The translations under genes and the position numbers were made by a program. Below, piece after piece: positions 3,168-52,475 of a stretch of 64,000 nucleotides of DNA; positions within the stretch are counted from its first letter, which is position 1; each line of letters begins with the position of its first letter. Source of the stretch: Candidatus Omnitrophota bacterium. GTDB lineage: Bacteria; Omnitrophota; Gorgyraeia; JAHJTE01. The stretch spans positions 4,561 through 68,560 of the forward strand of contig JBFMEB010000006.1 in the NCBI GenBank assembly GCA_040753675.1, written 5' to 3'. Below the pieces are notes generated by a model, which made no database searches, was not told the DNA's origin, and saw only the letters and a program-made list of their open reading frames with translations.

Positions 3168-3206
3168 AGTTTACAGCTAACAGTGTACAGTTTACAGTAA
3201 AGAGTA

Positions 3207-3464
3207 ATGGAAAATTTTGATTTTGAAAATCTAAATGTTTATAAAAAGTCATTGGAATTTATTCATAATATTTTGGAAATTTATAAAAAATTATCCAGAG
3301 AATTCCAGTATTCCATTTCTTTGGATTCAACGAGAGAATGTATTTCTGTTTTTAATGTTCTATATAGAGAATCCTTCATAGATGAAGGAATTTATAGCAA
3401 ATTACGCTTGGAAGCTAGAGAGATTACCAGCATGTTATGCGGTTTGATAGACTCAATTGGTTAA
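3207..3464 (+). CDS. Small, degenerate four-helix-bundle-like protein (23S rRNA IVS protein family, short)
   Basis: The N-terminus LNVYKKSLEFIHNILEIYKKL resembles 26704 (LEVYKISHKLAIEIHKM). It is flanked by inverted 'gtttacag / ctgtaaac' repeats. Weak call. Confidence 0.35.
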   Translation: MENFDFENLNVYKKSLEFIHNILEIYKKLSREFQYSISLDSTRECISVFNVLYRESFIDEGIYSKLRLEAREITSMLCGLIDSIG

Positions 3465-3519
3465 TACTGTTAACTGTTAACAGTAATCTGTAAACTTTTC
3501 CGACAGAATGGAGGAAATA

Positions 3520-3789
3520 ATGGCACGCAGAGGCGGACTTTCACACATACACTATAGAGAAAAAAGAGGGTTAAAAGTGAGCGCAGGCGAGCATGTTAAA
3601 GCCGGCAGCATCCTGACTCGCCAAGCAGATAAATGGAAACCTGGGATTAATGTTAGAGGTCAAGGCACATTATACGCATTGATAGACGGTGAGGTTTACT
3701 TTACACATAGAAAATCAAGATATAAGACAAAAAAGTCAGAGACAGTTATAAATATCAAGAAAGAGGAATCAAAGAAGACAGTAAAGTAG
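3520..3789 (+). CDS. rpmA: Ribosomal protein L27-like (divergent). Start placed at ATG 3520 with GGAGGA 5 nt upstream
   Basis: MARRGG...[47 protein letters not shown] aligns along the whole length of bacterial L27 (GG..KRLGVK..G..V.AGSII.RQRGT...PG.NVG.G.D.TLFA..DG.V.F). No rplU is adjacent. Confidence 0.6.
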
Positions 3790-8643: not shown

Positions 8644-8672
8644 ACACGGTGCCTTGAATAAATAACGCTTTA

Positions 8673-8775
8673 ATGTAAAAATCAAAATGCAAAAATCAAA
8701 ATTACAATGCAAAATGCAAAATTTTTTAATTTTGATATGTCATTTTAATATTTAATTTTTAATATTTGATATAAA
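8673..8775. repeat. AT-rich imperfect palindrome (caaaat family) at the pilB1-pilC1 junction
   Basis: aaaatcaaaatgcaaaaatcaaaattacaatgcaaaatgcaaaat ... ttttgatatgtcattttaatatttaatttttaatatttgatat. Positions 8679-8722 are an exact inverted copy of 1094-1138. Confidence 0.8.
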
Positions 8776-8805
8776 GACAGTAGTATTTTTGGGAGATAAA
8801 TTAAT

Positions 8806-10032
8806 ATGAGTCCGATTTTTGCTTACAAAGCAAGAGATAAACAGGGTGCCTTAGTAAAAGGAATCTTAGAAGCAGGTTCACAAGATGAGCTTATAGATAA
8901 ATTGCATAAGATGGGTTATCTGGTCATAAGCCTGGGGCAAAAAAGCAGTCCGGCTTTTAAATTAGATTTCCTATTGGATAAATTCACAACTATAAGTATC
9001 ACAGAAAAACTTTTATTTTATATTCAATTTGCAAATTTAATTCAATCGAGTTTGCCGATCTTAACAGCTCTTAAGACATTATCTAGCGAAATTAAAAACA
9101 GACGATTTAAACTTGTGTTAGAGGATGTTGTGAAAAAAATCGAATCTGGGTTAAGCCTCTCAGAGGCATTAGCTAATCATTCTGAGGTATTCTCTGGACT
9201 TTTAGTGCATATGGTAAAGGCAGGTGAGGCAAGTGGTGCATTAGCGCAGGTGTTAACCAGGTTTTCAAAATTTGCTGAGGAAGACTATGATTTGCGTCAA
9301 AGAGTAAAAGCAGCCTTATTTTATCCCGTGCTTTTAAGCCTGGCCAGCGCCGCGTTGATAATATTTATCACTAGTTTTGTTGTCCCAAGTTTCGTAGCCA
9401 TTTTTCAAAAGGCAAAGGTTAAATTGCCTATCTCTACTCGGTTTCTTTATTGGTTGGGAATGGCTTTAAGAAGCAATTGGTTTTTATTTTTAATTTCTAT
9501 TTTTCTTTTTATCTTTGTGTTAAAATGGATTATTAATACTAAAAAGGGGCGTTTAATTTTTGATAGTTTTAAATTAAATTTGCCTTTGTTAGGAGATGTT
9601 TTTCGCAAATTAAGTATATCGCGTTTTAGCCGCACCCTGGCGACATTAGATGCAAGCGGGGTGCCGATATTAAAGTCTTTAGAAATTTCTAAGGAGGTGA
9701 TGGGTAATAAGTTAATAGAAAAAACCATAGAAGCAGGAAGCCAACTTGTTGAGCAAGGAAGCACGCTTTATGAAGCACTAAGAACTACTAATCAGTTTCC
9801 AGAAGAGGCATTGCAGATGATTTCAGCAGGAGAGCAGGGTGGTAATTTGGCACCGATGCTTTCTAAACTCTCTGATTATTATGAAAAACTCATTGATTAT
9901 CGCCTGAAACGATTAGTTAGTATAATTGAGCCTGCCTTTCTTGTAATAGTAGGAGGCGTGGTTGCCTTTATTATGGCTTCGATGTTGATGCCGATATTTG
10001 ATATGGTGAAGGTGATAAGGGCGATGAAATAA
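8806..10032 (+). CDS. pilC: Type IV pilus / T2SS inner-membrane platform protein (PilC/GspF)
   Basis: Two T2SSF repeats, three TMs, ~400 aa. Typical GspF architecture. Confidence 0.9.
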   Translation: MSPIFAYKARDKQGALVKGILEAGSQDELIDKLHKMGYLVISLGQKSSPAFKLDFLLDKFTTISITEKLLFYIQFANLIQSSLPILTALKTLSSEIKNRRFKLVLEDVVKKIESGLSLSEALANHSEVFSGLLVHMVKAGEASGALAQVLTRFSKFAEEDYDLRQRVKAALFYPVLLSLASAALIIFITSFVVPSFVAIFQKAKVKLPISTRFLYWLGMALRSNWFLFLISIFLFIFVLKWIINTKKGRLIFDSFKLNLPLLGDVFRKLSISRFSRTLATLDASGVPILKSLEISKEVMGNKLIEKTIEAGSQLVEQGSTLYEALRTTNQFPEEALQMISAGEQGGNLAPMLSKLSDYYEKLIDYRLKRLVSIIEPAFLVIVGGVVAFIMASMLMPIFDMVKVIRAMK

Positions 10033-10040
10033 GTGAGGAC

Positions 10041-10076
10041 ATAAGTTACGGTGGCGTTAGCAACGTAACTTATTTG
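10041..10076 (+). terminator. Hairpin after pilC1 (ataagttacg...cgtaacttat). Possible terminator or attenuator
   Basis: Perfect 10-bp inverted repeat with a 13-nt loop, followed by tttg. Confidence 0.4.
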
Positions 10077-10080
10077 TCCG

Positions 10081-10200
10081 AACTTACCCAGCACTTATTT
10101 TACTAAAAAGCTGGATAATAAAATTAAGATTTTATTCGAAGAAAATTTATTTTATTTCAAATCAAAGCCTGGCAGTAAAATAAGTGCTGGGTTAAATTCG
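10081..10200. repeat. ~120-bp MITE-like inverted-repeat element, copy A. It has 18-bp perfect arms cccagcacttattttact / agtaaaataagtgctggg
   Basis: Near-identical, with 3-4 differences, to 51154-51275. The internal aataaaat-taag-attttatt sub-hairpin is conserved. Confidence 0.85.
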
Positions 10201-10265
10201 TAGACGGCCTTACGGCCTACAATTTATGTCGCCCATTGGGCTCCATAAATTGTCTACTCATTTAA
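10200..10265 (+). ncRNA. Candidate structured 5' leader, a three-stem element upstream of the pilin gene (copy A)
   Basis: P1 gtagac/gtctac. P2 ggcc-ttac-ggcc. P3 aatttatg-(tcg...ctcc loop)-cataaatt. Then tcatttaa-GGAGG-ATG. The same architecture with compensatory changes occurs at 49486-49548. Confidence 0.5.
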
Positions 10266-10277
10266 GGAGGTGTTTTT

Positions 10278-10769
10278 ATGCGACGGGTTTTTGGTTTTAC
10301 GTTAATTGAATTACTAATTGTTATTGCAGTTATTGCTATTTTAGTTGGAATTACAGTTCCAAGGTTTTTAGGTATGAGAGATGAGGCAAATTCTGCTAAG
10401 GCATCAGGAGAGACCGCAGCCTTAAAAGCAGCAATTGAGGCATACAGAATACACAGGGGTGTCTTTGCTTATGACGGTGATCCTGATACTTGGCAAAGCC
10501 AGTTGACTGCCATGAGACCGCAGCTTATCGAATCAGTGCTTCCAGATCCATTTACTGCTGCTACCTCGCCAGATAATGAGTATCAACTCGATGTTTCACC
10601 CAATGGAAGGTATTATGTAATTTGGTCAATTGGGCCAGATGCAGAAGCAGATATTAGTGGAATTGACAATAATGGCACTATTCTTACCACCCCCGCTGGC
10701 GGCTGTAATATAACAACCACAACTTGTAATAGAACAGAAGATATTTACGCAACTAATGGAACGCCTTAA
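10278..10769 (+). CDS. Prepilin-type N-terminal cleavage/methylation domain protein (type IV pilin or pseudopilin)
   Basis: MRRVFG|FTLIELLIVIAVIAIL class III signal peptide. Confidence 0.85.
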   Translation: MRRVFGFTLIELLIVIAVIAILVGITVPRFLGMRDEANSAKASGETAALKAAIEAYRIHRGVFAYDGDPDTWQSQLTAMRPQLIESVLPDPFTAATSPDNEYQLDVSPNGRYYVIWSIGPDAEADISGIDNNGTILTTPAGGCNITTTTCNRTEDIYATNGTP

Positions 10770-11826: not shown

Positions 11827-11957
11827 GTAAAATCAAAAATCAAATATAAAAATGCAAAATGACAATGCAAAATTTAAAATTTATAAACTTAAGTTTAAAA
11901 TAATTTTACATTTTAATATGTAATTTTGATATTTAATTTTTGATATTTAATTTTTAT
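11827..11957. repeat. AT-rich imperfect palindrome (caaaat family) centred on taaacttaagttta
   Basis: aaatcaaaaatcaaatataaaaatgcaaaatgacaatgcaaaat ... attttaatatgtaattttgatatttaatttttgatatttaattttt. Confidence 0.8.
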
Positions 11958-13460: not shown

Positions 13461-13567
13461 AAGTCAAAAGTTGTCATACAATTGTCATACTATTGTCATA
13501 TATTGTCTATTTACAATGTATGACCATATTTGACTATTTATGACTACGTATGACTTATTACTGTCTG
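13461..13567. repeat. 'tgtcata/tatgaca' palindromic repeat element, copy A
   Basis: aagtcaaaagttgtcatacaattgtcatactattgtcata...atgtatgaccatatttgactatttatgactacgtatgacttattactgtctg. Near-identical to 39470-39572. Confidence 0.85.
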
Positions 13568-18001: not shown

Positions 18002-18040
18002 TATAAAGATAAATTTAAATATCAAAAATCAAATATCAAA

Positions 18041-18421
18041 ATGGCAATACAAAATTCAAAATCTGATGACTTTAAAGAGAAATTTAAACAAAGACTATAT
18101 GATTTTGTATTAAAGCTTATCAATTTTTTAGATAGTTTAGCTAAAGATAATGTTTCAAGAAGAATTAGTGACCAATTGTTAAGGAGCGGAACAAGTATTC
18201 TTGGGAATTATATTGAAGGTAAATCAGCAAGCAGTAAAAAAGAGTTTACTAATTTTTTTAATACTTCCTTGAAGTCGGCTAATGAAAGCAAATTATGGCT
18301 TACATTATTGCGTGATGCTAAACGAGCTAATACTGAAGAAGTAACTTGGTTTCTGAAAGAACTCGATGAGATTTCTAATATTTTTGCATCAAGCATTTTG
18401 ACACTTAAAGGTAAAAAGTAA
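18041..18421 (+). CDS. Four-helix-bundle protein (TIGR02436 / '23S rRNA intervening sequence protein' family)
   Basis: DQLLRSGTSILGNYIEGKSASSKKEFTNFFNTSLKSANESKLWLTLL matches the family core. The gene sits between pilB2 and pilC2 inside a caaaat/attttg palindrome (18002-18040 and 18422-18482). Confidence 0.75.
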   Translation: MAIQNSKSDDFKEKFKQRLYDFVLKLINFLDSLAKDNVSRRISDQLLRSGTSILGNYIEGKSASSKKEFTNFFNTSLKSANESKLWLTLLRDAKRANTEEVTWFLKELDEISNIFASSILTLKGKK

Positions 18422-18482
18422 TTTTTAATTTTAATATGTAATTTTGATTTTTGCAGTTTGATTTTTGAATTAGTTTTATATT

Positions 18483-29289: not shown

Positions 29290-30924
29290 ATGGAGAAAAC
29301 CAGCAAAATATTAATCGGGATAGATATAGGAGAATATTCTATTAAAGCTGTAAAGATAGAAAAGACAGCTTCGGGATTGCGGATTCTAGATTTTATTACC
29401 AAAGATGAAATCTCTAAAAATGCACAAGGCGAAATCGACCCCGCTGTTATAAAGGATATTTTAAATAAGTTCTCAATTGAGGGGGCGCAGATTTGTTCTG
29501 TTATTTCTGGAGGAGACATAGTAGTTAAGCACGCTATTGTGCCATTTATGCCCAAGGAGGAATTAAAAGACGCAGTGCGTTGGTCTTTGAAGGAAGTAGT
29601 AAATTTCAACTTAGAGGAAAGCAAAGTCGACTTTCAGATACAAGATGCTATTACCGGCACAGATGGCATAAAGCGCAACGAGGTCTTAGCTGTAGCAGTT
29701 AACAATGCGGTTATTGATAAAAATGTAAAATTACTCCAAGCAGCCGGCATAGAGCCATACTTAATTACTACGAGCCATTTTGCCTTAGCAAATTTGGTTG
29801 CGCATAACGAACGAATAATGCAAGGTAAAACCAATGTCTTGATTGACATCGGGTTTAAGAAAACTACCATCTTAATTTTTAGAGGCACAAAATTAGAATT
29901 TATCCGACAGATTTCTTCCGCAGGAGATAGTTTTACCAAGGCTTTAAGCGGCGTGGTGGTTACATTTCCCAAACGAATAGAATTGGATTTTAAAAAAGCG
30001 CAAGAGTTAATAAGACAATGCGGCATTCCTTCTAAATTTGAAGCGAATGCTAACGTCCAAGATGTTCCGTTGTCTCAAATATCTGTATTAATGCGGCCGG
30101 TTTTGGAGCGTTTTCTCACTGATGTGCGGGGCTCTTTTAAATATTTTAGGGAAGAATTCCAAGTTGAGTCAATAGATCAGATTTTTTTATCAGGTTCCGG
30201 TGCGATGTTAAAGAATTTAGTTGAATTTGTAAAGGATGGTTTGGGAGGTATACCTACTCAGTTAATTCCCATGCCTGAGCGGTTAGGCTTCCAGGTAGAT
30301 AAAGATAAGTTGTTACCCCTTCTGCCTGCATTGTCAGTGAGTATAGGAGCATGTTTAGGAGAGGATAATGTTATAAATTTAGTTCCTAAGTCGGTAAAGA
30401 TGCAGAAATCTATAAGTGTCCAGCAAAGAATATTAAGTTTTGCTGGTATTATACTTCTTATAATTGTACCTTTTACTTTCATATCATTAATACTAAAGTT
30501 GAACCGTTATAAAAGGATTCTCATATCCTATAATGACTATTATAGTAATCTGGTTAAATTACGCACCTTGAGGGATAATATTGTCGAACGCCAGAAGTTT
30601 TTCAATGAAATTATCGGTCGGGAACAAAATCTTTTCTTATATTTGAAAGAATTGAGCCGCATCGTGCCCAGTGCAATTGAGTTTAGGCATCTTGAATATG
30701 ATAAAACCCAAGAGATATTTTTAATACAAGGCTTAGCTTATAGCGCTGAAATTTCTTCTGAGAAATCTTTATCTAATTTTCTGCTTGACTTAGAAAATTC
30801 TCCTTATTTTAGTGATGTAAATCTGATTTCTAGCAAAAAAACTAGTACCGATCAGATAGAAATCGTAGATTTTGTATTAAGTGTTAAATTAACCAAAGTT
30901 AACCCCGTTAGAGATTACAAGTAA
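29290..30924 (+). CDS. pilM: Second PilM-PilN fusion protein
   Basis: ILIGIDIGEYSIKAVKIE actin-like N-terminus. C-terminal TM (ILSFAGIILLIIVPFTFISLIL) plus a PilN-like tail. Paralogous to 13578-15209. Confidence 0.75.
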   Translation: MEKTSKILIGIDIGEYSIKAVKIEKTASGLRILDFITKDEISKNAQGEIDPAVIKDILNKFSIEGAQICSVISGGDIVVKHAIVPFMPKEELKDAVRWSLKEVVNFNLEESKVDFQIQDAITGTDGIKRNEVLAVAVNNAVIDKNVKLLQAAGIEPYLITTSHFALANLVAHNERIMQGKTNVLIDIGFKKTTILIFRGTKLEFIRQISSAGDSFTKALSGVVVTFPKRIELDFKKAQELIRQCGIPSKFEANANVQDVPLSQISVLMRPVLERFLTDVRGSFKYFREEFQVESIDQIFLSGSGAMLKNLVEFVKDGLGGIPTQLIPMPERLGFQVDKDKLLPLLPALSVSIGACLGEDNVINLVPKSVKMQKSISVQQRILSFAGIILLIIVPFTFISLILKLNRYKRILISYNDYYSNLVKLRTLRDNIVERQKFFNEIIGREQNLFLYLKELSRIVPSAIEFRHLEYDKTQEIFLIQGLAYSAEISSEKSLSNFLLDLENSPYFSDVNLISSKKTSTDQIEIVDFVLSVKLTKVNPVRDYK

Positions 30925-31184
30925 TGTTCTACACCTATGTTCTTAGAAGCAAAAAGGATAAAAAGCAATATACCGGCACTACTTCTAACTTACGGAAACG
31001 CTTCAAGGAGCATAATGATAACAAGGTAACCTCTACCAAAGGCAGAGGCCCTTTTGAACTAATATATTTTGAATTCTGCTTAAACAAACACGATGCCTTT
31101 GCTAGGGAAAGATTTCTAAAAAGTGGCATGGGTAAACGTTACTTAAAAAACAGATTGAAGCGTTTCCTATCTCTAACGGGGTAA
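30924..31184 (+). CDS. GIY-YIG nuclease-superfamily small protein (UPF0213/YhbQ-like)
   Basis: FYTYVLRS...KQYTGTTSNLRKRFKEHN is the GIY-YIG motif. Its start overlaps the pilM/N stop (TAATG). Confidence 0.8.
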   Translation: MFYTYVLRSKKDKKQYTGTTSNLRKRFKEHNDNKVTSTKGRGPFELIYFEFCLNKHDAFARERFLKSGMGKRYLKNRLKRFLSLTG

Positions 31185-35420: not shown

Positions 35421-35437
35421 CGAGCAAGCTAAAGTTC

Positions 35438-35457
35438 CCTGCCTGCCGGCAGGCAGG
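35438..35457. repeat. GC-rich 20-bp perfect palindrome cctgcctgccggcaggcagg, copy 1 of 2
   Basis: Also at 45877-45896 (19/20). Both copies lie immediately 3' of a gene stop in an AT-rich genome. Possible terminator hairpin or protein site. Confidence 0.8.
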
Positions 35458-35491
35458 TGTAAGTTATCTGCTCATTGAAGGAGGTCAATCA

Positions 35492-39469: not shown

Positions 39470-39572
39470 GGTCAAAAGTTGTCATACAATTGTCATACCA
39501 TTGTCATATGTTGTTTTTATAATATATGACAATACTTGACTATTTATGACTATGTATGACTTATTGCTGTCT
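39470..39572. repeat. 'tgtcata/tatgaca' palindromic repeat element, copy B, preceded by the acgcagatgatcactgatg motif
   Basis: gggtcaaaagttgtcatacaattgtcataccattgtcatatg...atatatgacaatacttgactatttatgactatgtatgacttattgctgtct. About 90% identical to 13461-13567. Confidence 0.85.
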
Positions 39573-49376: not shown

Positions 49377-49403
49377 TGGGGGATATAAAATCCCCCATTT
49401 TGT
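49377..49403 (+). terminator. Rho-independent terminator (gggggat-ataaa-atccccc + ttttg)
   Basis: Read directly. Confidence 0.55.
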
Positions 49404-49415
49404 TAAGTGAGACCA

Positions 49416-49477
49416 CCCCGCCCTTTTGGTTAGGGCGGAATTGAAAAATAAAAATATATCTCGCCAAAAGGGCGGGG
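49416..49477. repeat. Inverted-repeat hairpin element (ccccgcccttttgg...ccaaaagggcgggg). Architectural analogue of the 10081-10200 element
   Basis: 14-bp perfect arms, 34-nt loop. Followed by the same ttaaattcg junction and the three-stem leader. Confidence 0.7.
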
Positions 49478-49485
49478 TTAAATTC

Positions 49486-49548
49486 GCAGACGACCTTACG
49501 GTCTACAGCTTACGTCGTTAACACTCCGTAAGTTGTCTGCTCATTTAA
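49486..49548 (+). ncRNA. Candidate structured 5' leader, copy B, upstream of uppS
   Basis: P1 gcagacgac/gttgtctgc. P2 gacc-ttac-ggtc. P3 agcttacg-(tcg...ctcc)-cgtaagtt. Then tcatttaaa-ATG. Every stem differs from copy A by compensatory changes. Confidence 0.5.
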
Positions 49549-50281: not shown

Positions 50282-51085
50282 ATGGAATTAAGGAAAAGAA
50301 TTTTAAGTTCGATTTTACTTATTAGCATAACTATTGCTGCTATCAAGATATCGTGGCTGTTTGGTATTGTTGCTACGGTTTTGATTGCGTTGGCCTTAAA
50401 CGAATTTTTTGCAATGGTTCAAAGCAACGACATCAAGGTGTTTCGTTATTTTGGAATTTTAATTGGGATAATTATACCCATATCCATATTTTTTAAGTTT
50501 GAATTAACCAGAAGCTGGGAGTTGTTCTTTATCATTTTATTATTTATTTGCCTTTTTCTCTTACAACTAAGCCGTAAGGACATAGCTGCTTCACTGGTGG
50601 CTATTTCTGTTACTATCTTTGGGATTCTTTATATTTCCTGGCTTTTTAGTTTTATTATAAAGTTACGCTTAATCTCGCCCTATGGCGAAAGCTTAGTGGG
50701 TATGCTCATCCTTACGGTTAAATCTGGAGATATTGGAGCTTATTTAGTGGGCTCGCGTTTTGGAAGACACCCGTTAATTGCGCGTATTAGCCCTAAAAAA
50801 ACAGTCGAAGGAACAATAGCTGGGTTCGTCTGCAATATGTTATTCTGTTTAGTTAGTAAAAGTTTTTTGCCGATATTTAGTTATGGACACCTGATTTTCC
50901 TTGGTTTATTTATGGGTGTGATGTCTTTATTTGGGGACTTGTCTGAATCTTTAATCAAACGCGATTGTAAGGTTAAAGACGCAGGTAGCCTATTTCCCGG
51001 CTTAGGCGGTGTCTTGGATGTTCTAGATAGCCTTCTTTTTACAACTCCGGCAATTTATTTTTATGTGAGCGTAATATTAAAGTGA
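50282..51085 (+). CDS. cdsA: Phosphatidate cytidylyltransferase
   Basis: SGDIGAYLVGSRFGRHPL...SPKKTVEGTIAG signature. Multi-TM. Confidence 0.85.
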   Translation: MELRKRILSSILLISITIAAIKISWLFGIVATVLIALALNEFFAMVQSNDIKVFRYFGILIGIIIPISIFFKFELTRSWELFFIILLFICLFLLQLSRKDIAASLVAISVTIFGILYISWLFSFIIKLRLISPYGESLVGMLILTVKSGDIGAYLVGSRFGRHPLIARISPKKTVEGTIAGFVCNMLFCLVSKSFLPIFSYGHLIFLGLFMGVMSLFGDLSESLIKRDCKVKDAGSLFPGLGGVLDVLDSLLFTTPAIYFYVSVILK

Positions 51086-51128
51086 GCAGACAATTTACGA
51101 AAAGCAGGATCTTTGAGTAAATTGTAGT

Positions 51129-51145
51129 CCCGACGATACGTCGGG
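51129..51145 (+). terminator. Hairpin cccgacg-ata-cgtcggg after cdsA. Weak terminator candidate
   Basis: 7-bp stem. No strong T-tract. Confidence 0.3.
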
Positions 51146-51153
51146 CGTCTGCG

Positions 51154-51275
51154 AACTTAACCCAGCACTTATTTTACTAAGAAAGCTGGATAATAAAATT
51201 AAGATTTTATTCGAAGAAAATTTATTTTATTTCACATTTAAGCCTGGCAGTAAAATAAGTGCTGGGTCAAATTCG
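51154..51275. repeat. ~120-bp MITE-like inverted-repeat element, copy B, near-identical to 10081-10200
   Basis: Same 18-bp arms and the same internal sequence, with 3-4 differences (caaatcaaag vs cacatttaag). Confidence 0.85.
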
Positions 51276-51320
51276 ACCAAACAATCCGTCACAAAACTTG
51301 GCGGATTGTGGTCTCATTTG

Positions 51321-52475
51321 ATGAAGAAAATAGCGATTTTAGGTTCAACCGGAAGTATTGGCAAAAGTGTGCTCTCAGTAATTGAACATTTTCCTGATGA
51401 TTTTTCTGTGGTAGGCTTAACCGCAGCAAGTAATATCAATCTTCTCGCAGCACAAATTAGAAAATTTAAGCCTAGGGTGGCTGCTTGTCTGCATAGGGAT
51501 TTAGGCAAAAAGCTTAAAAGTCAAGTTTCCAGTAAGACAAAGATTTTTTTTGGAGAAGAAAGCCTCAATTTAGTAGCCACCTTAAAAGAAGCTGACCTTA
51601 TCCTGATAGCCATAAGCGGCTTTAGCGCTTTGTATCCTCTACTGGCAGCTATCCAAGCAGGCAAACATATTGCACTGGCTAATAAAGAGGCATTGGTAAG
51701 CGCAGGTTCGTTAATTAGTAAGGAAATTATCAAGCACAAAACCACTTTGATTCCCATTGACAGCGAGCAATGTGCGATTTTTCAGTGCTTAGCAAAAGAG
51801 CCAGCTAAAAAGTTCGTTAAAACTATATACCTTACGGCCAGCGGCGGCCCGCTTTATTTCAAGAAAGATAGAAATTTTAATAAGATAAGCAAGGAAGAAG
51901 TGCTAAGGCATCCCCGTTGGTCCATGGGGAAAAAGATAACCGTTGATTCAGCTACTTTAATGAACAAAGGCCTGGAAGTTATTGAGGCAAAATGGTTATT
52001 CGCAATAAACCCAGATCAAATAAAAGTTTTAATACATCCTCAGGCGATAGTGCATTCAATGGTAGAATTTATTGACGGTTCAATTTTGGCTCAGCTATCT
52101 ATCACCGACATGAAGTTACCAATACAATTTGCTTTAAGCTACCCAAATAGAATTAGTTCGCCTTTTGCCTCTTTGGATTTTAGAAAGTTTGGAACTTTAA
52201 ATTTCTTTGAGCCGGATAATAAACGTTTTCCCTGTCTTTCTTTAGCATATCGAGCGCTTAAGTCTAAGCCGAGCGCGACCACAGTGTTAAACGCAGCCAA
52301 TGAAGAGGCAGTAACTGCATTTTTGACCAATAGGCTGAAATTTTCCGATATTGCAAAGGTCGTAGAAGAGACTTTAGGCAGACACAAACCAATTGATTAT
52401 TTGAGTTTAAAAAATATCGTTGAGATAGATTTTTGGGCGCGCGCAAAATCTAAAGAATTTATAGAAAGGATCTAA
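51321..52475 (+). CDS. dxr: 1-deoxy-D-xylulose 5-phosphate reductoisomerase. ATG 51321; the ORF-track TTG 51306 is less likely
   Basis: MKKIAILGSTGSIGKSVL NADPH-binding N-terminus. LANKE and NKGLE motifs. Confidence 0.9.
   Translation: MKKIAILGSTGSIGKSVLSVIEHFPDDFSVVGLTAASNINLLAAQIRKFKPRVAACLHRDLGKKLKSQVSSKTKIFFGEESLNLVATLKEADLILIAISGFSALYPLLAAIQAGKHIALANKEALVSAGSLISKEIIKHKTTLIPIDSEQCAIFQCLAKEPAKKFVKTIYLTASGGPLYFKKDRNFNKISKEEVLRHPRWSMGKKITVDSATLMNKGLEVIEAKWLFAINPDQIKVLIHPQAIVHSMVEFIDGSILAQLSITDMKLPIQFALSYPNRISSPFASLDFRKFGTLNFFEPDNKRFPCLSLAYRALKSKPSATTVLNAANEEAVTAFLTNRLKFSDIAKVVEETLGRHKPIDYLSLKNIVEIDFWARAKSKEFIERI

Follow-up and report, generated by a model that had tools for sequence, protein, structure and literature searches.

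A modular palindromic cassette between genes of Omnitrophota and candidate phyla radiation bacteria

We analysed a 64,000-nt stretch of DNA from a Candidatus Omnitrophota bacterium (GenBank assembly GCA_040753675.1, contig JBFMEB010000006.1, positions 4,561 to 68,560 of the forward strand; hereafter "the window"), which carries two near-identical copies of a hairpin of about 105 nt. This hairpin forms the middle of an intergenic cassette with a stereotyped layout, about 220-245 nt long, which occupies the gap between the stop codon of one gene and the start codon of the following one. Related genomes gain and lose the cassette as one block, and it is a dynamic modular repeat with exchanged parts: its arm families, its one- and three-stem modules, and the orientation of its core. 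We are confident in describing it as a dynamic mosaic repeat cassette. We give an even chance to the fuller reading, in which it is a new mosaic palindromic intergenic repeat of Omnitrophota and the candidate phyla radiation (CPR) that acts as punctuation between genes on messenger RNA.

Architecture of the cassette

The central hairpin contains no open reading frame (ORF) and is bounded by perfect 18-bp terminal inverted arms. The arm sequence, CCCAGCACTTATTTTACT, occurs exactly four times in the 64-kb window as two inverted pairs, at 10087-10104 (+) and 10174-10191 (-) and at 51161-51178 (+) and 51249-51266 (-), compared with a mean of 0.12 occurrences in shuffled sequence. At locus 1 (10087-10191, no strand assigned) the arms enclose a 69-nt AT-rich core; the copy at locus 2 (51161-51266, likewise without a strand) is 96% identical to it, and both belong to arm family F1. 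These exact pairs confirm what a first-pass annotation had read from the sequence, namely a repeated, non-coding inverted-repeat element in two copies with perfect 18-bp arms around an AT-rich core. Its figure of about 97% identity between the copies was slightly high: they are indeed near-identical, at 95.1% (116/122) over its coordinates and 96.2% from arm to arm. The inverted repeat extends about 7-8 nt past those arms (cGAAcTTA(A)CCC... / ...GGGTyAAATTCg), and the repeated unit including this extension spans about 10073-10200 and 51147-51275. When folded, as the annotation had proposed, both copies form long, stable hairpins (-41.7 and -39.6 kcal/mol; z = -6.6 and -5.1) in which the perfect 18-bp stem lengthens to about 25 bp.

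The 100 nt flanking the two copies on each side are only 51% and 48% identical, which is background. A shared segmental duplication is therefore ruled out, as the annotation had argued, and the hairpin is a discrete repeat. Chance similarity, or a piece of some larger duplicated segment, has nothing in its favour except the AT-rich composition; with four exact 18-mers where 0.12 are expected, unrelated flanks, and homologous elements by the dozen elsewhere, this explanation is already refuted and can be set aside as virtually impossible.

Read in the direction of the genes, the cassette consists of the stop codon of gene X, a module that we call END, the central hairpin, a module that we call START, and the ATG of gene Y. 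The END module is a stem-loop of about 57-84 nt in the window, and the START module is a mirror image of the END type that is often followed by GGAGG. Between them, the central hairpin has a GC-rich CCC...GGG base, an A/T-rich upper stem and a variable core. When folded, each of the two complete cassettes, at loci 1 and 2, forms three hairpins side by side (-89.5 and -90.4 kcal/mol; z = -9.5 and -10.8). A covariance model, R1, built from 25 sequences resembling what the first-pass annotation had called a "leader", matches the window at only three loci, all adjoining the hairpins: on the + strand after each hairpin, and on the - strand, mirrored, ahead of the hairpins at loci 1 and 2. The physical coupling of hairpin and leader that the annotation described thus holds, but it is not leader-specific, since a mirror copy of the module ends the upstream gene. 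What had been taken for small terminator-like hairpins upstream of loci 1 and 2 lack a T-tract and are instead these reverse-strand copies.

At locus 1 the END module (10030-10086, - strand) is one long stem, matched by R1 at 10029-10087 (-) with 63.5 bits (E = 5.6e-13) and forming a separate hairpin in the 240-nt cassette fold. Its outer strand starts with the TAA stop codon (10030-10032) of pilC, whose product is a T2SSF-family protein (Pfam). The three-stem START module (10192-10265, + strand; 38 bits, E = 1.4e-6), also seen in the fold, has an outermost stem, P1, of TTAAAT/ATTTAA and two UC/UC internal loops, and is followed by GGAGG at 10266-10270 and by the ATG, at 10278, of a pilin carrying the N_methyl motif.

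Locus 2 combines the opposite module types, with a three-stem END module and a one-stem START module. The END module (51077-51160, - strand) is the mirror image of a three-stem module; R1 matches it weakly, at 51078-51160 (-) with 12.7 bits, and it shows three stems in the 244-nt fold, while its reverse complement aligns by eye with the module at locus 3. Its outer strand overlaps the final codons of cdsA and the TGA stop codon (51083-51085). The START module (51267-51321, + strand; 54.3 bits, E = 1.1e-10), again visible in the fold, carries a P1 stem of TCAAAT/ATTTGA, a compensatory variant of TTAAAT/ATTTAA, and its final base is the A of the dxr ATG (51321-51323), with no Shine-Dalgarno sequence. 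The inner stem of this module (51281-51309) was flagged as terminator-like but abuts the dxr ATG. A mechanically called dxr ORF begins at a TTG inside the module (51306); the real start is the ATG at 51321, which gives a 384-aa product 100% identical to an NCBI protein, P0001, from a metagenome-assembled genome (MAG). As dxr exemplifies, such cassettes can shift automated start-codon calls.

The third locus, which the first-pass annotation had also recognised, carries a hairpin of a different arm family, F2, at 49416-49477 (no strand assigned), and its perfect 14-bp arms of other sequence, CCCCGCCCTTTTGG / CCAAAAGGGCGGGG, were described correctly. The upstream gene had been named frr; it follows an OmpA-family gene, has no Pfam family and is not frr. 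This locus has no END-side module, and an ordinary terminator-like hairpin (49377-49397) lies upstream of the hairpin. Its three-stem START module (49478-49548, + strand; 39.8 bits, E = 4.7e-7) stops 1 nt ahead of the uppS ATG (49550). A probable decayed cassette can be seen in the sequence at 35421-35491 (+ strand), where R1 gives no match: it comprises the palindrome CCTGCCTGCCGGCAGGCAGG, the 3' half of a START module (tgtaagttatctgctcattgaa) and GGAGG, and precedes a response-regulator gene (Response_reg domain). The same 20-nt perfect palindrome is intergenic at window positions 35441-35460 and about 45880, and it recurs in intergenic spacers of a related genome, L027, at about 2820 and 5030, embedded there between inverted simple repeats.

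The module stems are under strong selection to pair. Among 25 Omnitrophota modules, 97.3% of cells are paired and 17 of 20 pairs show double-sided changes; the corresponding values are 96.5% and 16/24 for 18 CPR END modules, and 96.0% and 17/22 for 17 CPR START modules. In each of the three sets, none of 500 shuffles reached the covariation score. As a control, moving the 3' pairing partner by 1-3 columns lowered pairing to 21-64%. The P1 change from TTAAAT/ATTTAA to TCAAAT/ATTTGA is part of this covariation. The conserved unpaired bases form two 2x2 UC/UC loops, with a TTCG...CTC pattern, which appear in either module if it is read from the hairpin outward. The END and START types nevertheless make up separate subfamilies, each with a fixed orientation to the genes. 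We considered a structural switch in which the inner P1 strands lengthen the central stem and the outer strands pair to give a perfect four-way junction, and rejected it because P1 covaries within modules and the END and START modules of one cassette usually differ where the sequence is variable (TCAAAT against TTTAAT or TTCAAT). Read in sense, END modules contain a short open frame, a stop codon followed by ATG and 3-13 codons, such as MKPKVME*; this can be a by-product of the mirror symmetry, AATGAG being the reverse complement of CTCATT.

Relatives, gene context and turnover

Relatives were found through an exact match to one arm, so that this arm is identical in part because of how the search was done; the search did not select for the second arm, the hairpin length or the modules. 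With the 18-mer arm and one genome per species, we obtained 26 loci, about 20 of which are true two-armed elements, in at least 11 species-level genomes (five Omnitrophota and six CPR MAGs). Taxon labels are those on the MAG records: one of the five Omnitrophota MAGs is labelled Planctomycetales but has Omnitrophota-type modules, and the CPR carriers are labelled Parcubacteria, Paceibacterota, Yanofskybacteria and "Saccharibacteria". A search with a 17-mer arm added 92 further metagenome stretches. Three MAGs have 4-5 exact-arm matches apiece, and several matches lie at contig ends. No element was found next to a tRNA gene.

Across 58 two-armed elements (15-nt arms), the distance between arms peaks sharply at 69-71 nt, with a range of 68-75, and a minority of elements have a loop of merely 2-39 nt; hairpin length stays near 100 nt. 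Core sequences diverge between lineages while the arms stay conserved. Relative to the flanking genes, the CPR core lies in the same orientation in 53 pairs and in the opposite one in 44, which rules out a fixed core orientation there. The same slot between the same modules is also taken by other arm families: CCCGCCCTTTTGG at window locus 3 and in L009 (1680-1760), CCCTCACCTTTTTA in L025, CCCTCCCACCACTTTTTG in L123, and several variants of the CCCAGCAC arm. Common to all arm families is a GC-rich CCC...GGG base, after which come a T-run and an A-run. In some CPR cassettes an additional, minimal hairpin, CCCAGCACTTAGAATAAGTGCTGGG, stands about 55 nt away from the main hairpin (L093 at about 105-130 and L103 at about 255-280), making a longer composite before the gene. 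In L089 (3555-4331), seven direct, diverging copies of an arm-like 15-mer (CCAGCACTTATT...) stand 27-162 nt apart, mostly 120-160; having no inverted partner, they are probably an unrelated, possibly coding, tandem repeat.

We next considered the genes around the elements, using ORFs called crudely with a 70-aa minimum and counting elements with neighbours within 400 nt (n = 45). The neighbours are co-directional in 39 of the 45 cases, apparently divergent in five, which on inspection are mostly ORF-calling artefacts, and convergent in one. One arm is about 59-61 nt away from the stop codon, and the other is about 60-65 nt away from the start codon. The CPR cassette begins with the TAA of TAAAGGGC and ends in ...TTTTGGC immediately before the ATG, with no Shine-Dalgarno sequence. 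Ribosomal proteins, identified by Pfam, account for 13 of 40 downstream genes (L11, L25, S18, S11, L5, L6, L2, L3, L17, S2, L27, L22 and S8), an enrichment with a binomial p of 4e-8 to 9e-5 at a background of 5-10%; one L32, recognised by inspection of its N-terminal sequence, and two pilins are also among the downstream genes. Overall, the flanking genes are housekeeping genes in conserved order, such as pilC/pilin, cdsA/dxr and ribosomal-protein operons.

Comparison of orthologous junctions shows the cassette coming and going as a unit. The cdsA-dxr gap is 220 nt in the window and holds the cassette with F1 arms. The same gap is empty in L027 (16 nt; Dxr 83% identical to that of the window), L125 (50 nt; 71%) and L028 (55 nt; 67%), and in L123 and L124 (228 nt; 65%) it is taken by a different cassette, whose arms and modules are not those of the window. 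L027 in turn has other palindromic inserts at dxr-rseP, where the gap in the window is 3 nt. Upstream of uppS, L028 keeps the host terminator and ttttgttaagtgagaca and lacks both hairpin and module, which are also absent in L123 and L125. What is gained or lost is thus the whole stop-to-start cassette, and not the hairpin of about 120 bp that had first been proposed as the unit.

Parts of the cassette also turn up in new combinations. The START module before uppS at locus 3 is, by eye, about 93% identical to the module before dxr in L123, although the Dxr proteins of the window and L123 share only 65% identity. This likeness has sharp limits, namely the hairpin at one end and the ATG at the other. 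Conversely, the two F1 hairpins of the window are 96% identical although the modules flanking them differ in type. The description of the element as MITE-like (a miniature inverted-repeat transposable element) is therefore upheld in part: empty sites, a module at a non-orthologous junction and both orientations speak for mobility, but a MITE in the strict sense is not supported, as there is no general target-site duplication and no transposase was found in the related DNA.

Possible functions and rival explanations

The cassette is probably co-transcribed in operon mRNA, because almost all copies lie between co-directional genes and show no promoter or terminator signatures. A consensus scan for -35 and -10 hexamers spaced 16-18 nt apart found no sigma-70-like site in 9950-10350, nor in or adjoining the hairpins or modules of loci 2 and 3; a scan for intrinsic terminators, taken as GC-rich hairpins with a T-tract immediately after them, found none in 9950-10350, and the only one at locus 3 (49377-49397) is upstream of the cassette. 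In the model we propose, the cassette would be transcribed within the operon mRNA and fold as three adjacent hairpins (about -90 kcal/mol). By analogy with Correia elements, the long perfect duplex at the hairpin base (18-25 bp) could be the target of a double-strand-specific RNase such as RNase III, whose substrates have about 20 bp or more of unbroken duplex. After cleavage, the END stem-loop would cap the 3' end of the upstream message, and the START stem-loop would cap the 5' end of the downstream message and present its ribosome-binding region. Escherichia coli RNase III has a weak consensus, WNAGWGNNCWUNNN^ (PMC4357697), and the arm holds UAAGUG/CACUUA, which corresponds to its outer box, WNAGWG/CWCUNW. 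We propose a role of the co-transcribed RNA in processing or stability only tentatively, and regard it as somewhat less probable than the contrary.

Several findings weigh against the punctuation reading, on both its RNA and its mobile side. The inner CWU box of the E. coli consensus is not matched, and RNase III, having little sequence specificity, fails to explain arms of 17-18 nt that are identical across phyla. Co-transcription, cleavage and an effect on stability are all predictions from sequence. Of 1272 pair cells, only about 1% hold G.U, and G.U and A.C are about equally rare, with no strand bias; such near-pure Watson-Crick pairing is unusual for an RNA-only constraint and points to pairing at the level of DNA. 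In sense mRNA, moreover, the END module presents the complement of the conserved loops, as tandem GA/GA loops. Mirror symmetry, exclusively Watson-Crick pairing and arm identity across phyla are together beyond an RNA-only model.

As to mobility, there is no general target-site duplication at the ends of the hairpin or the cassette: sequences flanking the hairpin are inverted rather than direct repeats, and the longest string shared by cassette flanks averages 5.5 nt within a cassette against 4.9 nt for mismatched pairs. The annotation had suggested such duplications as a check. In 0.84 Mb of related DNA (about 125 loci) there is no arm pair with an ORF inside it, the widely spaced pairs being three-mismatch chance matches or neighbouring elements. 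A tblastn search of the related DNA with an approximate IS200 TnpA query, a weak test, found no IS200/RAYT-like gene. Viral contigs contain no copies, only one chance single-arm match within coding sequence. Direct repeats that include the Shine-Dalgarno region do flank two individual cassettes, L021 6248-6479 (AAGGAGGTCAA, 11 nt) and L012 4474-4663 (GAGGAGT, 7 nt).

Taken together, mirror symmetry, Watson-Crick-only pairing and arm identity point to recognition or propagation by some protein at the level of DNA or single-stranded DNA. The cassette might spread by trans-acting recombination or transposition on DNA hairpins, or by gene conversion between copies. A bolder proposal, which we consider doubtful, joins the two levels in a horizontally spreading "operon punctuation cassette" common to Omnitrophota and CPR: self-propagating DNA without terminal duplication or known transposase, perhaps moving as DNA hairpins, would install, precisely from stop to start codon, a double-strand RNase site, stem-loops on either side of it that protect the 3' and 5' ends, and a translation start region, with the arm CCCAGCAC... 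(8-18 nt) as the recognition site of a conserved protein. Were this true, the cassette would re-segment polycistronic mRNAs, above all those of ribosomal-protein operons, in ultra-small bacteria.

Other explanations account for parts of these data. The element could be a classical MITE that arose from an insertion sequence by deletion and is moved by a transposase encoded elsewhere, with transposase-binding terminal repeats in either the 18-bp arms or the outer TnAAATGAG/CTCATTnAA ends and with any effect on RNA incidental. Perfect terminal inverted repeats, small size, several copies, conserved arms around drifting cores, occurrence in either orientation, empty sites in L027, L028 and L125, and matches at contig ends, as expected of assembly-breaking repeats, all fit this explanation, as does the 11-nt direct repeat around the L021 cassette. 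We still consider it unlikely, given the shared flank strings of 5.5 against 4.9 nt, the lack of any ORF between arm pairs and of a match to the approximate TnpA query; in addition, the START type always faces a gene start, and the module stems differ by compensatory changes instead of being copies of one master sequence. A purely DNA-level site is a related idea, in which the palindromes extrude as hairpins or cruciforms or bind a protein symmetrically; a recombinase, gyrase or a nucleoid protein (as for BIMEs) and an integron-like single-strand recombination system are candidates. Such a site would agree with the two-fold mirror symmetry that the cassette shows as a whole, with covariation that is Watson-Crick-only (about 1% G.U and no strand bias), with the GC clamp and AT-rich centre, and with the setting in highly transcribed operons; each module also resembles attC in outline, having a stem, a small internal loop, a second stem that carries a bulge, and a variable tip. 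No partner protein was identified, however; the attC R-box consensus (GTTRRRY / RYYYAAC) is matched at locus 1 and not generally, the flanks are housekeeping genes in conserved order and not integron cassettes, and the orientation of END and START relative to genes is fixed, which implies selection through expression. We therefore think a site acting on DNA alone improbable.

It is also quite improbable, in our judgement, that the element is a portable, possibly bidirectional promoter with a 5' leader, in which TAAAAT in each arm would serve as an outward -10 box, transcripts would start near GGG and the module would form the 5' untranslated region. In its favour, AGTAAAATAAGTGCTGGG matches the -10 hexamer at 5/6 positions, outward transcripts would have the two mirror-image modules as their "leaders", highly expressed genes (ribosomal proteins and pilins) follow the elements, and Correia elements carry promoters (PMC10969869). 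Against this stands the negative sigma-70 scan; moreover, a leftward transcript would run antisense to the preceding gene at 39 of 45 elements. The promoter role is weakened further because other arm families in the slot (CCAAAAGGGCGGG, TAAAAAGGTGAGGG, CAAAAAGTGGTGG) have no -10-like hexamer and because the core, the site of any -35 box, lies in both orientations and is sometimes a loop of 2-6 nt. A sigma-54 promoter was rejected as well: the spacing of TGGCAG...TGCT is wrong and the motif is not conserved.

Finally, the element might be a free-standing gene for a small, rod-like RNA of about 100 nt whose conserved closing stem binds a conserved protein, much as the first-pass annotation had suggested with its structured small RNA gene. 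The length of about 100 nt and the terminal stem are conserved across phyla, the folds are strong (z = -4.5 to -8.7), and many CPR copies have a TAnnnT-like hexamer some 8 nt before CCCAGC. This suggestion found no support from promoters or terminators, neither of which is conserved across phyla. An Rfam scan of the window gave no match at gathering thresholds, and a permissive scan only miRNA-precursor-like noise far below threshold. The hairpin always lies between two modules and between genes, and its core has no conserved sequence and can be deleted; that the core lies in either orientation argues directly against an RNA gene, and we see very little probability in it.

Returning to the cassette as punctuation in operons, its closest analogues are Correia elements, REP/BIME mosaics and the pneumococcal BOX; it is alike in outline to each and departs from them in sequence, in target duplication or, on the weak test above, RAYT association, and in host range. 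Its distinctive traits are the three-hairpin, stop-to-start architecture, interchangeable arm families, arms common to Omnitrophota and CPR, and enrichment in ribosomal operons. We found no prior description of it in the searchable literature, where the 10-mer AAGTGCTGGG retrieves only papers on human and other mammalian sequences. Correia elements (CREE or NEMIS) are defined by a Neisseria-specific 26-bp terminal repeat and a TA duplication. Like them, the central hairpin is non-coding, falls within about 100-150 bp, has long terminal inverted repeats that form one hairpin, and occurs in many copies typically just upstream of genes and co-transcribed, although co-transcription is only predicted here. 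Correia elements are cut by RNase III at the terminal inverted repeats, carry promoters, can be inverted and differ in presence or absence between strains (PMC10969869). The cassette differs from them in its unrelated sequence, in having no TA target duplication and no evident promoter or IHF site, in the two structured mirror-image modules that flank the hairpin and span stop to start codon, and in having several interchangeable arm families in two distant phyla rather than one genus.

REP, BIME and REPIN sequences of proteobacteria are imperfect palindromes of intergenic DNA that occur in clusters, with alternating orientation, as mosaics made from a small number of motif types; they are transcribed in operons, can stabilise the upstream mRNA, and are also bound by DNA proteins. 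The mirrored modules are likewise palindromic units in alternating orientation, but measure 57-84 nt in the window instead of 20-40 nt and surround a central hairpin of about 100 nt. The cassette is tightly linked to the downstream start codon and in only one of 45 cases lies between convergent genes, whereas for REPs convergent gene pairs are a common location and promoter-proximal spacers are avoided. The related DNA also yielded no RAYT gene, within the limits of the approximate TnpA query noted above. BOX of Streptococcus pneumoniae (boxA-boxB-boxC) is an intergenic repeat built of three modules, the outer two being related to each other in inverted orientation, and it forms stable stem-loops near genes. 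There is no sequence relation between the two; the outer modules of the cassette are independent hairpins with covarying stems, and its middle part, a long hairpin, has arms that are conserved across phyla.

Integron attC sites keep their structure while varying in sequence; each is an imperfect palindrome, about 60-140 nt long, that separates a stop codon from the following co-directional gene. The cassette may share with them the importance of pairing in single-stranded DNA. Membership is rejected by the R-box: GTTAAAT at locus 1 fits it and most others do not (GTCAAAT, GTTTAAT, GTTCAAT, GTAAATT and, in CPR, GTAAAGG). The cassette differs further in being flanked by housekeeping operon genes in conserved order, with no search for intI made, and in placing two mirrored modules and a hairpin at each junction where attC is one oriented site. 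Intercistronic RNase III hairpins, as in the early and late mRNAs of phage T7, are long hairpins between cistrons that leave protective stem-loops at the ends after cleavage; unlike the cassette, they are not repeated mobile DNA and have neither mirror-image modules nor conserved 18-nt stems.

If the punctuation reading holds, uncultured lineages carry structured intergenic cassettes that move between gene junctions, including those of ribosomal-protein operons, and apparently between phyla. The cassette would then offer a new model of selfish palindromic DNA tolerated or exploited in minimal genomes, and a candidate natural "insulator" between cistrons. The arms CCCAGCAC...GTGCTGGG together with the modules would provide a sequence handle for finding the recognising protein. 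The cassettes would also serve as a marker in MAG annotation, where they break assemblies, give rise to spurious small ORFs and displace predicted start codons. Even as selfish DNA only, they would be a member of the REP/Correia/BOX class where none had been described.

Other repeats and small ORFs in the window

The window has a GC content of 37%, and all 58 genes from a simple longest-ORF scan lie on the + strand; a recognisable Shine-Dalgarno 4-mer stands upstream of only about one-third of them. AT-rich, low-complexity, imperfect palindromes fill the spacers at 1017-1195, 8644-8805, 11827-11955, 18010-18094 and 18402-18482. They are built of AAAATCAAAAAT and GCAAAATGACAAT units (families D1-D3) and form a repeat family separate from the cassette. 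A second repeat of about 110 nt (D6/D9; GTCAAAAGTTGTCATACAATTGTCATAC...GTATGACTTATT) is present at 13463-13566 and 39471-39572 in copies 85-90% identical; each has an internal inverted GTCATAC/GTATGAC and lies just upstream of a gene.

Two small ORFs also stand out. In the region 3168-3507, an 85-aa ORF (3207-3464) gives a near-threshold match to 23S_rRNA_IVP, a four-helix-bundle family (32 bits against a cut-off of 33.8); it has inverted acagtttacagtaaag / ctgttaacagtaatctgtaaac repeats on its flanks and directly precedes an L27-like gene (3508-3789). At 30924-31184, an 86-aa ORF encoding a stand-alone GIY-YIG nuclease domain (E = 1.3e-16) lies between two longer genes and looks like a small selfish insert. 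Lastly, another CCC...GGG hairpin family, with arms CCCCGTTAGAGAA / TTCTCTAACGGGG, occurs at 728-774, within a predicted ORF (510-1016) that has no Pfam family, and this arm type recurs in the metagenome loci L077 (5252-5331, 6060-6137 and 6774-6907) and L119 (7650-7764).

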